In this document: in pieces, positions 3,855 through 48,589 of the stretch
Position numbering within the stretch: the stretch's first letter is position 1
How the letters are laid out: the number at the start of each line of letters is the position of its first letter
Origin: Candidatus Aminicenantes bacterium
GTDB taxonomy: Bacteria > Acidobacteriota > Aminicenantia > Aminicenantales > Aminicenantaceae
Assembly: GCA_011773465.1 (NCBI GenBank)
Contig: WVXO01000064.1
Coordinates: 57,929-121,928, forward strand
Direction of reading: 5' to 3'
DNA length: 64,000 nt
Translations under genes and position numbers: made by a program
The notes under the pieces: generated by a model
Database searches by the model: none
Seen by the model: only the letters and a program-made list of their open reading frames with translations
Told to the model about the DNA's origin: nothing

Positions 3855-5165
3855 ATGTCAAGAAATCTCGATAATTTACAGAATAACAGAGAAAAAAAAT
3901 TCATCTCCCTTCAGGTGGGAATCTCATTTCTACAGACGCTTCTCTCATTTTTCGTACCAGGAGGAGTTCTCGTCCTGGCAGTATCATTTCTTCTGCTTCG
4001 AGGATTGCCAACCCTTACTTTACCTCTGCTGATCCGCATGTGTCCGTATGCTGTTTTGGCTGCTGGGATATGGTTCGGATGGCGTTTTAACCGAAGCAGG
4101 TTGATTTTTGTCATTATTGTTCTAGCGTTAGCTGACAGATCATTGCTGATCTTTGCAGAAGGTAGTGGGGCTTCAGTAGGTGCGGGGCGTATTGTGTATA
4201 ATGCTATCTGCATCCTGTTACCGGCGAATCTAGTTGTGTTTTCCTTTATTAAGGAGCGGGGGTTTTTAACCTGGCATGGTAAGTGGCCCCTGGGCATGAT
4301 TCTTTTCCAGATAATTGCCGTTATACTGATTGGCGCTTGGAAGCAGTTAGGCTTGAGCCCTTATCTGGAATACTCATTTATAAAAATGCGTTTATTCAGC
4401 CTTATACCCATGGCCCAGCCAGGCTTGATAGCATTTGGAGCAGCCTTTTTTATTCTTATATTTCGCTATGTTCAGCACCGGGGTTCGATCGAGTGCGCTT
4501 TTTTCTGGACATTAGTCTCATCATTTTTTGCTCTGGCATTGGGCGATATAGGTCCCATGTCCACAATCTTTTTCGCCACAGCAGGCCTTGTCCTTGTCAT
4601 CTCGGTGCTTGAGACATCTTTTAACTTCGCCTTCTACGACGATTTGACCGGTTTGCCGGCCCGTCGAGCCTTTAACGAAACTCTCTCTAAGATTGGACGC
4701 CACTTTACAGTCGCGATGATTGAAGTAGACTCTTTTAAGAAAATAAACGACCGTTATGGCCTTCTTGTTGGGGATCAAGTTCTGCGTATGGTTGCCACAA
4801 AGCTTGAAAAAGTAACTGGAGGCGGTCTATCCTATCGTTATAGCGGACAAAGGTTCGGAGTAGTTTTTCCTGCCAAGTTTGTGGACGAAACAATTCCCCA
4901 TCTGGAAAGCCTGAGGAAGGGCGTCGAGATATATGGCTTCATTCTCCGCGGTGCAAAGCGTCCACGCAAGAAACCCGCGAATCCAGAAAAGTATAGAGGA
5001 CCTCAAAAGAGAGTTCCCCTTACTATTGCCATCGGCGCGGTAGAAAGGGAAGACACCAGTGTAAAGCCAAAGTATGTAATCAAGGCCGCGGATCAAGCGC
5101 TTTTAAATGCTCAAAATATGGGGGGCAACCAAATCGCCACCCAACCTCCTAAACCTTCTTATTGA
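3855..5165 (+). CDS. Polytopic membrane protein with a C-terminal degenerate GGDEF domain (likely inactive diguanylate cyclase or c-di-GMP receptor).
   Basis: About 6-7 hydrophobic helices are followed by 'DDLTGLPARRAFNE...IEVDSFKKINDRYG...GDQVLRMVA'. The catalytic GG(D/E)EF site reads 'RYSGQRF'. A lysine/arginine-rich ~30 aa insert follows. Confidence 0.7.
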   Translation: MSRNLDNLQNNREKKFISLQVGISFLQTLLSFFVPGGVLVLAVSFLLLRGLPTLTLPLLIRMCPYAVLAAGIWFGWRFNRSRLIFVIIVLALADRSLLIFAEGSGASVGAGRIVYNAICILLPANLVVFSFIKERGFLTWHGKWPLGMILFQIIAVILIGAWKQLGLSPYLEYSFIKMRLFSLIPMAQPGLIAFGAAFFILIFRYVQHRGSIECAFFWTLVSSFFALALGDIGPMSTIFFATAGLVLVISVLETSFNFAFYDDLTGLPARRAFNETLSKIGRHFTVAMIEVDSFKKINDRYGLLVGDQVLRMVATKLEKVTGGGLSYRYSGQRFGVVFPAKFVDETIPHLESLRKGVEIYGFILRGAKRPRKKPANPEKYRGPQKRVPLTIAIGAVEREDTSVKPKYVIKAADQALLNAQNMGGNQIATQPPKPSY

Positions 5166-5470
5166 AGAAGTCAGTAAATACGTCTAATTTATTTGACCTG
5201 GAATTTTAAAGAGAAACTACCTTTTTTCTCGACAACTGGTAATGTAAAAAAAAGTAAAAAAAGGGACAGGCTACTTTTTGGAAAGGAAGAAAGCTATCTT
5301 TACCCAGGAATTGGCCTCAAAGAAAAAGGTGCTTCCCCTTATGAAAAAGTATTGACTTCGCGCTATGGTCTATATAAATTAGCATGCTAGTTTACAAGCA
5401 TTCTTGACTAAGGACATGTTCGCAGTGAGCATGATCGATCAAACACTTATCCCAATAATCAACAAGTACG

Positions 5471-19789: not shown

Positions 19790-19967
19790 TAAGAATCAAA
19801 GCCATGCTATTTAGACAGGAGACATCATGAAAAAGAAGCATCGCCAAATCAGTGATTGGAGAAGGTTTTGGGAAATAGCCTAGCTCCCTTCAGATTTTTA
19901 ACGCCATTCTCCATTCGCTCTTCTCGGCGTCTGCGTAACTCGCTCCGCTCAGACATACTCGCCAAAA

Positions 19968-20006
19968 AATGGGCGCCAAAAAATGGGGACAGGCCCCATT
20001 TTTGTA
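19968..20006. repeat. Family C palindrome (A-run, GGGGNC hairpin, T-run), terminator-like.
   Basis: 'aaaaaatgggcgccaaaaaatggggacaggccccatttttg'. Confidence 0.6.
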
Positions 20007-20042
20007 GGAGAGAGGATACCCTCGACTTGTGGACAGAACATC

Positions 20043-20072
20043 AGAAAATGGGGCCTGTCCCCATTTTTTGCC
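20043..20072. repeat. Family C palindrome, reverse complement of the 19975-20000 copy.
   Basis: 'agaaaatggggcctgtccccatttttt'. Confidence 0.6.
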
Positions 20073-20184
20073 CCTCGAAGAGCGAATTCCGAAGGCTAAA
20101 TCTTCAATGGTCGCTGCAGCTATTTCCCAAAACCTTTGTCCTGAACATAGCAACCGGTTATCACGCAAATGGAGGTATTTACTC

Positions 20185-21672
20185 ATGAAAAAGAAATTTT
20201 ACCTATTCATTGCCTTTGTGTTTATTATCTCAATTCCTTTCCAGGGCGAGGATCAGATAAAAAAAGCTGAAAAGAAAATCAGGCAGTCTGATATATCAGA
20301 AATTAAAGAAGAGGTGGCGAAGACAAATTGGGAGGCTGTTCGGATAAAAAAATTCCCGATTTCAGTGCAGTGCTGGACATTCAGGAAGTTTACATTTTTT
20401 GAAACACTGAAAAAGGTAAAAGAACTCGGTCTAAATCATTTGCAGCCCTATCCAGGTCAGCCGCTCAGCCACGATATGCCTGATGTTAAATTTGACCACA
20501 ACCTCAGCGATGTTCTCATAAACAGAGTGAAAAGTACATTAAAGGATCATGGAATTTCCCTTGTCAGTTACGGAGTTGTGGGTTTTGAAAACAATGAAGA
20601 AAGCATGCGGAAGGTTTTTGATTTTGCAAGAAAAATGGAAATTAGAACTATCGTCACTGAACCGGAATTTGATGACTACTCTCTCATTGAACAAATGGTC
20701 AAGGAATACAACATAAATATTGCCATTCATAATCATCCCGAGCCTTCAAAATATGCCCGCCCCGAAACAGTTCTTGACCATGTTAAGGGGCTCGACACGC
20801 GAATTGGCTCATGCGCAGATACCGGACACTGGATGCGCGCCGGCCTTAAACCTGTGGAGGCACTCAGGTTGCTCAAGGGACGCATCCTGGATGTTCATCT
20901 AAAGGACCGGAATAAATTCGGCACTGAAGGAGCCTACGATGTTCCTTTTGGAAAGGGAATGGCAAATATCAAGGACATACTTGCTGAACTTACCCTGCAG
21001 AATTTTTACGGCTACCTTGCCGTAGAGTATGAAAACCCGGATGAAGTCGACAATCCCTCGCCTTTAGTCAAAAAAAGCATCGAATACATAAAAAGTATAA
21101 CCTACTATGAGGGGTACGAAGAGATATTAAAAAGAACTCATGGTAGATACTCCAAGCATGGCTGGAACCATTATGGACCCGGCTACTTTGAACTTGATGA
21201 GAAAACTGGAATACTGAAAGGGCAGGGCGGAATGGGTCTTTTCTGGTACAGCGTGAAGAAGTATCAAAATTTTGTCATGGAACTTGACTATAAGTGTGCG
21301 GATAAAGCTACAAATTCAGGAATTTTTATTAGAGTTCCTGATATGCCGAAAAACGATGATTATATTTATCATTCCTTCGAGATTCAGATCAACGACGTCG
21401 GCAAGGGAATTCATAAGACAGCTGCTGTCTATGATGCAGAAGCACCCAGTTCTGATGCCTTCAAAGAGCCAGGTGAATGGAACCACTTCAAGATCACATT
21501 TAAAGATAAAAATATCCAGGTAGAATTAAACGGTACTCAGGTGATTGACTGGGATGCTGAGCCGAGAGGAAAAGTCAGAGATTTTGCAGAGGAGGGTTAC
21601 ATTGGTTTACAGAACCATGACAGCCAATCACCGGTTTATTTCAGGAATATCTTTGTAAAAGAATTAAAATAA
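20185..21672 (+). CDS. Secreted fusion protein: sugar-phosphate isomerase/epimerase (xylose-isomerase-like TIM barrel) N-terminal domain plus DUF1080 (3-keto-glycoside hydrolase-like) C-terminal domain.
   Basis: Signal peptide 'MKKKFYLFIAFVFIISIPFQG'. The TIM-barrel region includes 'IAIHNHPEP...GSCADTGHWMRAG...DVHLKD'. The C-terminus 'GIFIRVPD...SFEIQINDVGKG...GEWNHFKITFKDKNIQVELNGTQV...GYIGLQNHDSQSPVYFRNIFVKEL' matches DUF1080. The start is moved to the signal-peptide Met. Confidence 0.7.
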   Translation: MKKKFYLFIAFVFIISIPFQGEDQIKKAEKKIRQSDISEIKEEVAKTNWEAVRIKKFPISVQCWTFRKFTFFETLKKVKELGLNHLQPYPGQPLSHDMPDVKFDHNLSDVLINRVKSTLKDHGISLVSYGVVGFENNEESMRKVFDFARKMEIRTIVTEPEFDDYSLIEQMVKEYNINIAIHNHPEPSKYARPETVLDHVKGLDTRIGSCADTGHWMRAGLKPVEALRLLKGRILDVHLKDRNKFGTEGAYDVPFGKGMANIKDILAELTLQNFYGYLAVEYENPDEVDNPSPLVKKSIEYIKSITYYEGYEEILKRTHGRYSKHGWNHYGPGYFELDEKTGILKGQGGMGLFWYSVKKYQNFVMELDYKCADKATNSGIFIRVPDMPKNDDYIYHSFEIQINDVGKGIHKTAAVYDAEAPSSDAFKEPGEWNHFKITFKDKNIQVELNGTQVIDWDAEPRGKVRDFAEEGYIGLQNHDSQSPVYFRNIFVKELK

Positions 21673-24743: not shown

Positions 24744-24788
24744 GAAATGGGGCCTGGCCCCATTTTAGTGGCCCCATTTTAGCAATTT
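24744..24788. repeat. Family C palindrome plus an adjacent half-site, in a divergent promoter region.
   Basis: 'gaaatggggcctggccccattttagtggccccatttt'. Confidence 0.6.
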
Positions 24789-46897: not shown

Positions 46898-46982
46898 TTT
46901 TTTATTATATGCAAGAAAAGATAGAAAGGCGAGACTATAAATGGAGTCTTCATATGATGATATTTGGGGGATGGCATCGCTC

Positions 46983-47128
46983 CCAAAAGATTTTTTACAC
47001 CATTCAAATTCCGCACTTCTCGGCGGCTGCGTAACCCGCGCTACTCAAACATACTCGCTGGTCCACTACGTGGACTCCCTTCGAAGAACAGAATTTAAAG
47101 GCTAAATCTTTTAAGGTCGCTTCATCCA
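46983..47128. repeat. Family B repeated element (copy 2), with a short central hairpin 'ggtccactacgtggac'.
   Basis: 'ccattcaaattccgcacttctcggcggctgcgtaacccgcgctactcaaacatactcgct' ... 'cagaatttaaaggctaaatcttttaaggtcgc'. Immediately upstream of CDS 47150. Confidence 0.7.
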
Positions 47129-47149
47129 TCCCTCAAATACTCCTGCGTT

Positions 47150-48589
47150 ATGACAAATTACTTACTCATCATGGAGAACGATGTGCTTAAGGCAAGACAA
47201 AGAGGATTGACAAGGAAGGATGAGTTTATTACTTTCTTGGCTATGAATATCTTAATCATCGCTGGCGGAATTTCATTAATCATCTTGATCTGTTTTTTCT
47301 TTCTGTTTGCCCTTTACAGTCTTCTGGAGAAAGAAAAAAGAGCTTTCTGGCGCAGCAGCGTTGTCGTTCTTCTTTTAATTATAATAAGCCTTATTTTTTT
47401 CCTAGTTGAACCCCCGTTAAAAAATTGGCTGTTTGCCATCGCCCTTATTGTACTCTTACTGGATCTTGTAATCCTGCTCTTTTCTCCTTTAAAAAGAAAA
47501 TCAACAGAAATTGTAGGGAAACAGAAAAAAATTGATGAAAGAGATGTTATCTTTGCTCGTTTTGAATATAAGGAAGGCACTGCGACTTATAAGGAGTATT
47601 ATACGAGAAAACCTGAATGCAAGAAGATAGATGATGAAATAAGAAGAATTCCTGACATCCTCTCTCCTCCTCATCTGAAAAAACATCCACATCTTTTCTC
47701 TCTGGCTTCTGCAGAGTTTGGCTTTCTTGAACATCAATTAACTCAGGTAAGTGGAAGAGAAAGTAGAGAAAAGTCTCAATTATCACCTTCTGAAAGCACT
47801 CGAATAATAAAGGAAATTATAAAATATTTGGGTTCTGATCTGTGCGGCATCTCTTCTTTAGATCAAGCTTATGTTTACTCCCATGTGGGGAGAGGGCCAG
47901 AACATTATGGTGAGGAAATAAAGCTTGAGCACACTTACGCCATTACTTTTGCTTTAGAGATGGATTTAGGGATGGTTGCAACTGCGCCTAAAGAACCTGT
48001 TATTGTCGAGACTGGGAAGAAATATATCGAAGCGGCAAGAATATCTATCATCGTTGCTGATTTCATCCGCCGCCTTGGATATCCAGCCAGAGCCCATATC
48101 GCGGGAAGCAATTATCAGGCTATGCTACCTCCACTCGCCTGGCTGGCTGGATTAGGAGAATTAGGAAGGCTGGGGATTCTTATCACCTCCAAATACGGGC
48201 CCAGAGCGAGATTAGGGCTTATTACAACCGATATTCCTCTGATTGAGGATAAACCGAAAAAATTGGGTATCCAGAATTTCTGCCAGAAATGCTATAAATG
48301 CGCTAGAAATTGTCCGGCCCAGGCTATTCCTTACGAAAAGAAGGTAGAGGTAAACGGAGTGTTGAAATGGGCGCTTAATCGAGAGGAATGCTATAAATTC
48401 TGGAGAAGAGCAGGTACTGACTGTGCTGTTTGTATTTATGTCTGCCCTTACAGCAAATCGGACAATGCCTTCCACGGCTTTATCAGGAAAGTTATGGAAA
48501 ATTCTGCTGTTGCCCAGTCCTTTTCAGTCTGGGCTGATGACTTTTTCTACGGTCGCGTTCCCCTTCGCAGAAAATCACCTTTAGGTTAA
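47150..48589 (+). CDS. Membrane-anchored reductive-dehalogenase / epoxyqueuosine-reductase (RdhA/QueG)-like Fe-S protein.
   Basis: Three N-terminal TM helices. 'AGLGELGRLGILITSKYGPRARLGLITTDIPL...FCQKCYKCARNCPAQAI...CAVCIYVCP' parallels RdhA/QueG cores. Confidence 0.6.
   Translation: MTNYLLIMENDVLKARQRGLTRKDEFITFLAMNILIIAGGISLIILICFFFLFALYSLLEKEKRAFWRSSVVVLLLIIISLIFFLVEPPLKNWLFAIALIVLLLDLVILLFSPLKRKSTEIVGKQKKIDERDVIFARFEYKEGTATYKEYYTRKPECKKIDDEIRRIPDILSPPHLKKHPHLFSLASAEFGFLEHQLTQVSGRESREKSQLSPSESTRIIKEIIKYLGSDLCGISSLDQAYVYSHVGRGPEHYGEEIKLEHTYAITFALEMDLGMVATAPKEPVIVETGKKYIEAARISIIVADFIRRLGYPARAHIAGSNYQAMLPPLAWLAGLGELGRLGILITSKYGPRARLGLITTDIPLIEDKPKKLGIQNFCQKCYKCARNCPAQAIPYEKKVEVNGVLKWALNREECYKFWRRAGTDCAVCIYVCPYSKSDNAFHGFIRKVMENSAVAQSFSVWADDFFYGRVPLRRKSPLG

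Follow-up and report, generated by a model that had tools for sequence, protein, structure and literature searches.

The subject of this study is a repeat family that occurs twice in a stretch of 64,000 nucleotides (nt) from a Candidatus Aminicenantes genome (contig WVXO01000064.1, positions 57,929 to 121,928 of the forward strand), which we call the window and to whose positions our coordinates refer. The two occurrences, copy 1 (19834–20182) and copy 2 (approximately 46955–47190), very probably belong to a single family of miniature inverted-repeat transposable elements (MITEs), one that has spread widely in Aminicenantes and is presumably moved in trans by a transposase. The family is previously undescribed, and the searchable literature yielded no paper on MITEs or insertion sequences of Aminicenantes. 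An initial annotation of the window had offered two possibilities for these stretches, a MITE-like mobile unit or a shared cis-regulatory or non-coding RNA 5′ leader; the former is borne out by the terminal inverted repeats and target-site duplications, by the large number of dispersed copies and by orthologous sites that are empty.

Comparison within the window confirmed that the two stretches lie where that annotation placed them and are related by sequence, at an identity (75% over the aligned positions of 19887–19963 plus 20064–20120 against 46983–47128) slightly below the approximately 80% that it gave. Exact 20- and 24-mers (CTTCTCGGCGNCTGCGTAAC and AAGGCTAAATCTTNNANGGTCGCT) are common to both copies, each occurring twice in the window with 0.00 occurrences expected from shuffles, and a profile built from relatives has exactly two matches in the 64-kb window, namely copies 1 and 2. 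Their location was thus correct in the annotation, but both are longer than it had them. Outer inverted repeats flank each copy, and although their sequences are unlike between the copies their complementarity is kept (the arms of the outer stem, P1, read GGTTTTGGGAAATAGC/GCTATTTCCCAAAACC in copy 1 and TATTTGGGGGATGG/CCATCCCTCAAATA in copy 2). Because these outer arms stay complementary, both strands are predicted to fold into one long imperfect hairpin, with fold z-scores of −4 to −10 from either strand of each copy.

Many further copies lie outside the window. A scan of a species-representative genome collection with a core pattern of 19 specified bases returned at least 118 stretches, nearly all of them in Candidatus Aminicenantes metagenome-assembled genomes (MAGs); among the matches listed there were about 33 assemblies, with up to 15–17 matches in a single assembly. 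The terminal repeat of one subfamily (B) was found on at least 120 metagenome contigs, many of them from sediment samples by record name, and within 244 loci we delimited 193 elements. Viral contigs, plasmids and phages yielded no copies. Several of the matched Aminicenantes MAGs carry the mislabel "Eubacteriales", and some element-bearing contigs are filed under other taxa (L099, JARFUL010000156.1, labelled Syntrophobacteria; L053, labelled Zixibacteria; and many "Eubacteriales" binchicken MAGs), which could reflect mis-binning, mislabelling or real spread beyond the phylum.

Beyond P1, the outer arms of full elements end in terminal inverted repeats of roughly 23 bp. In subfamily A the repeat is G[T/G]AAGCATCTCCAAATCCGTGAT, the element starting G[T/G]AAGCATCTCC... 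and its partner end reading ...GGAGATGCTTAC; in subfamily B it is GGTTCTCTTCCATTTTGTGTGG, paired with its own reverse complement. Elements bounded by such repeats are mostly 250–350 bp long, with a range of 54–816 bp. For subfamily B, a target duplication of 8 bp (at least 7/8 matching) is found at 17 of 23 copies as compared to 15 of 506 controls, in which the left flank of one copy was paired with the right flank of another; for subfamily A, a 9-bp duplication (at least 8/9 matching) is found at 6 of 14 copies and at none of 182 controls. Target sites are rich in A and T without following a strict consensus, and 144 of 154 copies are intergenic.

Copy 1, whose ends can be placed to the nucleotide, is made up as follows.

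19825–19833, no strand: left target-site duplication TCATGAAAA, identical to 20183–20191 and present as a single copy in the empty sites L119, L120 and L121
19834–20182, + strand: MITE copy 1, subfamily A, 349 bp including a nested insert; delimited by profile matches at 19860–19963 and 20072–20136, a left end that fits the family consensus, a 9/9 target-site duplication and the filled orthologue L027
19827–19883, + strand: putative 18-codon open reading frame (ORF) made by the insertion, in which the native Shine-Dalgarno sequence and ATG would be read into the MITE as far as the TAG at 19881–19883
19834–19858, + strand: left terminal inverted repeat AGAAGCATCGCCAAATCAGTGATTG (family consensus as given above for subfamily A)
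19864–19879, + strand: left arm of outer stem P1, GGTTTTGGGAAATAGC, a perfect complement of 20119–20134
19884–19963, + strand: left half of the conserved core, with the invariant block CTTCTCGGCGTCTGCGTAAC and CATACTCG
19964–20069, no strand: nested insert in place of the P7 hairpin, comprising a 14-nt tandem duplication and a second repeat element of about 90 bp (19978–20069)
20070–20116, + strand: right half of the conserved core, CCCTCGAAGAGCG...AAGGCTAAATCTTCAATGGTCGCT
20119–20134, + strand: right arm of outer stem P1, GCTATTTCCCAAAACC
20158–20182, + strand: right terminal inverted repeat TTATCACGCAAATGGAGGTATTTAC, with GGAGG at 20171–20175; L027 has the same derived changes relative to the family consensus ATCACGGAAATGGAGATGCTTAC
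20183–20191, no strand: right target-site duplication TCATGAAAA, which includes the start codon, at 20185, of a xylose-isomerase-like/DUF1080 gene (identified by its domains)

The perfect 9-bp direct repeat that bounds copy 1 on both flanks defines the element itself as 19834–20182. It interrupts a GFO/IDH/MocA–DUF1080 operon in its 35-bp spacer, at the very start codon of the DUF1080 gene, such that the duplicated 9-mer includes the ATG. The orthologous site is also filled in L027, a contig of another genome, where the insertion has the same position, the same orientation and the same derived terminal changes; in L119, L120 and L121 it is empty, with only about 35 bp between the same two genes, an uninterrupted GACAGGAGACATCATGAAAAAGAAATTTT and one copy of the 9-mer. 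The downstream proteins of these three loci are the closest homologues of the window protein, at 85–86% identity.

The insertion left the native Shine-Dalgarno sequence AGGAGA (19817–19822) and the original ATG (19827–19829) on the far side of the element, and yet the DUF1080 gene is an intact 495-codon ORF in both insertion-carrying genomes. In the right terminus of copy 1, GGAGG lies 9 nt upstream of the present ATG at 20185; the family consensus at this place is GGAGA, and the change to GGAGG, together with two further terminal changes, is common to copy 1 and L027. Judging from this GGAGG–ATG geometry, the right end of the element most probably now serves as the ribosome-binding site of the DUF1080 gene. 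In a GC-richer relative a subfamily B copy has inserted independently (L014:5156–5400) and lies about 25 nt before the orthologous DUF1080 gene, so the same short spacer has been hit twice in different lineages. Another element of that locus (2412–2716) was considered as the orthologue of copy 1 and rejected, since the relevant one is the independent insertion at 5156–5382.

For the structure of the interior we aligned 49 distinct short-form copies (190 columns, 87% mean identity), derived a model of eight helices by hand and compared it with 500 shuffles. The alignment supports this structure: 94.3% of the cells are paired, and two-sided changes occur at 25 of the 52 pairs as compared to 11.7 ± 1.8 in the shuffles, none of which (0/500) reaches either value. 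When the 3′ partners were slid along the alignment, pairing fell to 36–48%. In the family alignment, 13 of the 16 pairs of P1 show two-sided changes. Stems P1–P5 form the long imperfect hairpin, and P5 closes the core, which is asymmetric and highly conserved and bears two arms: P6, which encloses the invariant CTGCGTAAC...CATACTC, and P7, a 6-bp hairpin that reads CCCGAC-TCC-GTCGGG in most copies and GTCCAC-TAC-GTGGAC in copy 2. The core is retained from genomes of about 41% GC to GC-rich ones, while the sequence of P1 is wholly replaced. Non-Watson-Crick cells are few (36 G–T, 82 A–C and 64 others out of 2548), as are G–U cells among the paired ones (1.4% on the + strand and 3.2% on the − strand), these being small counts from copies that are not phylogenetically independent; in this rarity the element is more reminiscent of a DNA palindrome than of a typical RNA. 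Single-column indels and covariation, with no codon pattern, mark the alignment as non-coding. The two ORFs within copy 1 (19856–20188 on the + strand and 19890–20186 on the − strand), already suspected in the initial annotation, are most probably spurious, as they lie wholly within this non-coding repeat.

The suggestion that the stem is hypervariable and prone to insertion was also well founded, in that different nested repeats occupy the apex of orthologous copies (the window and L027) and of copies across the family. The centre of copy 1 holds about 100 extra bases, with two inverted palindrome arms of the GGGGCC type; these and a third arm, all three reported in the initial annotation, lie at 19981–20001, 20046–20066 and 24745–24765. 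The nested element of about 90 bp (19978–20069), bounded by the inverted arms AAAAAATGGGGACAGGCCCCATTTTT and AAAATGGGGCCTGTCCCCATTTTTT, also occurs elsewhere, in either orientation, inside and outside the MITE (L035, L038, L063, L087 and L088). In the orthologous copy at L027, P6 and P7 are intact and are followed, a few bases later, by a different repeat of about 190 bp. Of 128 cores in the family as a whole, 61 are interrupted, in most cases by a weakly conserved arm of 55–81 nt after model position ~84–90, which defines a long form that is dominant in GC-rich genomes; we read this arm as a less constrained ancestral one, deleted in short forms. The remaining interruptions are nested repeats of 94–270 nt at positions 100–130. 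We also considered the hypervariable arm of the long form (~65–80 nt) as a guide or cargo and rejected the idea: it folds weakly, and by eye it holds the degenerate motifs GTGTTT and TTCCCTTTATC.

These smaller repeats have features of their own. At the left junction of the MITE core with the nested element of copy 1 there is a 14-nt tandem duplication, CGCCAAAAAATGGG (19960–19987), that looks like a slippage scar. Examples of the ~90-bp repeat (window 19978–20069; L035:3511–3600, L063:6754–6840 and L087:1048–1135) have 25-bp inverted arms, AAAAATGGGGnCnGGCCCCATTTTT, each a hairpin between A- and T-runs in the manner of a two-way terminator, around a conserved centre of about 40 bp, GTAAGAAAGAGGACATTCTCAACTTGAGGACA...; no clear target duplication was seen for this repeat. 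Members of the third family (TGCCTGGCGAAGGCTGTATGGTGAAAAAACCGTGAGAAAGGCTGAGCGGGCATGG..., about 190 bp) frequently sit within the MITE apex and also occur alone (L027:5640–5840, L013, L018, L020, L024 and L088; flanks of L002, L028, L037, L047 and L093), and the window has none. The window has one further feature of this kind.

24744–24788, no strand: solo arm of the nested palindromic repeat, AAATGGGGCCTGGCCCCATTT, with a partial repeat GGCCCCATTTTAG; this is not a MITE copy

The family also includes derivatives of kinds usual for MITEs. Locus L058 has a 54-bp element that consists of terminal repeats only, and in the core-less copies of L035 and L064 the P1 arms abut. Two further elements (L124:6300–6631 and L231:7830–8157) have subfamily B terminal repeats around a wholly different interior of about 320 bp, so that the terminal repeats appear as a mobility module able to carry other cargo. 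Copies also recombine: between L033:1937–2123 and L059:4944–5128 the right flanks are 96–99% identical and the left flanks unrelated, and the L033 element is a chimera, with its left half from subfamily A and its right half from B, exactly at the break in synteny. The MITE here contains the breakpoint of a recombination or rearrangement. In one assembly (JADHWO), four subfamily B copies (L050, L056, L065 and L114) lie in the loop of a small hairpin repeat, which flanks them with AGGGGTTTGATTTAT on one side and GATTTATCAAACCC on the other; other palindromic repeats may be preferred targets of the element, or sites in which it is tolerated.

Copy 2 belongs to a third subfamily (C), like L099 and L031, and is an old, end-eroded copy common to related genomes.

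46955–47190 (ends approximate), + strand: MITE copy 2, subfamily C, short form; profile match at 46961–47140 (E = 7.6e-45) and comparison with L099 and L031
46961–46974 and 47126–47139, + strand: P1 arms
46978–47121, + strand: core
47061–47075, + strand: intact P7 hairpin GTCCAC-TAC-GTGGAC

Its right outer arm reaches to about 47190; erosion has affected the left one, and the flanks show no recognisable target duplication. At the orthologous loci L122 and L123 the right arm is kept, and the core is lost in one and disrupted by a nested repeat in the other. L122 was tried as an empty site for copy 2 and rejected as a deletion derivative, given that the right arm of the element is present. The downstream gene, which encodes two 4Fe-4S domains and is annotated by some sources as reductive dehalogenase-like, had been taken to start at 47150, which would give a protein of 479 amino acids. 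The actual start is 47243, as indicated by a 100%-identical database protein (P0121) and nearly all close orthologues, which have 448 amino acids, and the first 31 codons of the longer ORF are consequently mostly MITE sequence. That both copies lie just before a + strand gene is incidental, copy 1 having inserted into an operon spacer and copy 2 ending about 52 nt before the true start of its gene. Just before the ATG at 47243 a block, GATTGACAAGGAAGGAnGAGTTTATTACTTTCTnGGCTATGA, is nearly invariant in three genomes; it includes TTGACA (47207–47212) and no Shine-Dalgarno sequence, and an mRNA starting at this ATG may be leaderless.

Several observations sit uneasily with a plain MITE. We found no autonomous element or transposase with matching terminal repeats in the window, the 118 genome loci (about 0.8 Mb) or the 120 metagenome loci, where we looked for terminal-repeat pairs 1–6 kb apart, ORFs beside solo terminal repeats and multi-copy ORFs. 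Conservation is highest in the interior core, in GC-poor and GC-rich genomes alike, and the stems change by compensation, a pattern unlike that of most MITEs. A single gain would not account for which orthologues of the copy 1 site are filled and which are empty: to either side of the site, the nearest relative of the filled L027 is the empty L120 and vice versa (92% and 91.5% nucleotide identity), with the filled window sequence outside this pair. A plausible history is one gain followed by precise loss in the L120 lineage, through slippage between the 9-bp direct repeats across the hairpin, a kind of loss known for palindromic transposons; two insertions at the same nucleotide are also possible. 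We favour the former because the window and L027 have terminal changes in common, and thus consider precise excision in the L120 lineage probable. Finally, the interior of the element differs between the window and L027 at only 3 of about 157 nt, whereas the four-fold degenerate sites of the flanking genes are 63–71% identical, a contrast that, given an insertion shared by descent, neutral decay of a dead copy does not explain. Element identity between the two is 94–97%, and the termini differ at 6 of 46 positions. Other positional orthologues likewise have element identities equal to or above those of the flanking, mostly coding, DNA (L015 against L093, 80% in the element and 69–75% in the flanks; L009 against L018, 92% and 73%). 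Slow evolution of the core could reflect either purifying selection or gene conversion from other copies, the latter considered because recombination between copies is documented (L033 against L059); both fit a comparison that comprises 4–6 orthologous pairs.

A MITE whose core is a functional module under purifying selection, spread through the phylum, would add to the transposition reading rather than replace it, and such a module might be a hairpin that acts in mRNA stability or processing, a modulator of translation, or a DNA platform used by a protein of the host or of the element. The invariant unpaired blocks beside co-varying helices, the persistence of the core across the range of GC content, its conservation at orthologous loci and the derived GGAGG in both copy 1-bearing genomes all point this way. 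On the other hand, orientation is random with respect to transcription, so that any RNA function dependent on sequence would need to be exerted from both strands; G–U cells are few, with the DNA-like look described above; L122, L123 and the core-less derivatives have lost or replaced the core with no visible effect; concerted evolution, through the documented recombination between copies, can mimic constraint; and the orthologous pairs are few. On balance we regard a functional core as possible and on the unlikely side. We are similarly doubtful, if anything a little more so, of the specific proposal that the P5–P7 core with its invariant loops is a selected module, acting as RNA on mRNA fate or translation or as DNA in the role of a protein platform, that purifying selection keeps it at fixed loci and that the MITE distributes regulatory hairpins and Shine-Dalgarno sequences in Aminicenantes.

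Far less probable is the initial alternative, a cis-regulatory 5′ leader or riboswitch-like RNA common to the two downstream genes. Both window copies are indeed + oriented and upstream of + strand genes, and the strong fold and covariation would suit such an RNA. However, among 154 copies 60 lie on the same strand as the downstream gene and 49 on the opposite one (p = 0.34), with tandem contexts split 30 to 21, 20 divergent contexts and 19 convergent ones (a bias of 33:19 in a first sample was gone in this larger one); orthologous operons lack copy 1, which is demonstrably an insertion; and target-site duplications have no place in a leader model. A search against Rfam, as had been proposed, gave no gathering-score match anywhere in the window, and a permissive search gave generic long-hairpin matches to the nested palindrome only. 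A scan for tRNA and tmRNA returned none, and scans of both copies for sigma-70 promoters and intrinsic terminators returned nothing above shuffles inside the element. We give equally little credence to a hairpin repeat of the REP/BIME-like or IS200/IS605 type, which a tyrosine HUH transposase (RAYT/TnpA) would move as single-stranded DNA, or to an integron attC-type site. A strong hairpin kept by compensatory change and the insertions in loops of small palindromes (L050, L056, L065 and L114, with flanks GGGTTT...AAACCC) would be at home in such systems, but these lack the 8–9-bp target duplications that are clearly present here. The elements are also dispersed singly rather than in cassette arrays (the window copies are 27 kb apart, and either orientation is found elsewhere), and their terminal repeats are conserved even around unrelated cargo, which points to recognition of double-stranded ends by a transposase. 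No associated Y1 HUH transposase gene was seen, though no search was aimed at one.

Under the preferred reading, that of a MITE mobilised in trans, a DDE-type transposase would recognise the terminal repeats and move the element by a cut-and-paste or copy-paste route, with duplication of 9 bp (A) or 8 bp (B) of AT-rich target. Insertion of copy 1 duplicated TCATGAAAA and parted the native Shine-Dalgarno sequence from the ATG, with the GGAGG of the element most probably taking over. After insertion, copies gain further small repeats at the P6/P7 apex, recombine with one another and decay at their ends, and they can be lost, presumably by slippage between the flanking direct repeats.

These results account for a repeat that would otherwise enter annotations in the guise of two spurious ORFs or be taken for a regulatory RNA, correct one gene start and document an abundant repeat family in an uncultured phylum. 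Copy 1 offers a natural example of a MITE landing on a start codon in which the gene survives and the end of the element appears to replace the ribosome-binding site. The element marks rearrangement breakpoints and, given that many copies are found at contig ends, probably fragments MAG assemblies; strains could be told apart by its filled/empty polymorphisms. The slow evolution of the core, together with compensatory change, poses the question of whether the interior of a MITE is held by selection or by gene conversion.

Among known systems, the ERIC/IRU elements of enterobacteria and Vibrio are intergenic imperfect palindromes with size variants due to insertions at fixed internal sites. The family described here resembles them in its length of a hundred to a few hundred bp, in a sequence highly conserved across genera and in its occurrence in either orientation, a likeness drawn by description rather than by sequence comparison and across different host phyla; it differs in having clear terminal inverted repeats, 8–9-bp duplications with proven empty sites and an asymmetric three-way core. 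The Correia elements of Neisseria (CREE/NEMIS) are abundant MITEs of 100–155 bp that duplicate TA and form hairpins in transcripts. They too often lie beside genes, have ends that can supply expression signals and occur in long and short forms by internal deletion, whereas the element here is 250–350 bp long with an 8–9-bp duplication, and no promoter or IHF-type site was identified in it. The termini of subfamily A (GTAAGCATC...) resemble those of IS66 elements, whose terminal repeats start GTAAGCG and which make 8-bp duplications (PMC11946415), an example end being GTAAGCGTCCGGCGAACTCACCTT (PMC12888890). The corresponding starts are GTAAGCA or GGAAGCA in subfamily A, AGAAGCA in window copy 1 and GGTTCTC in subfamily B; subfamily A, however, duplicates 9 bp rather than 8, and we found no transposase partner, of the IS66 family or any other. 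The ends of subfamily B (GG, 8 bp) presumably resemble ISL3-type ends, and a literature check of ISL3 terminal repeats found nothing. In nested or composite MITEs, such as the cyanobacterial Nezha type, small repeat families are inserted in one another, and copies recombine and mark breakpoints. Mutual nesting, recombination and rearrangement breakpoints are likewise found here, but the nesting is concentrated at one site, the hairpin apex, and the host core is strongly conserved around it. The unusual points of this family in comparison are its conserved, asymmetric, structured core, the single hot spot for nesting at the apex, the start-codon insertion that the gene survived and the probable precise excision.

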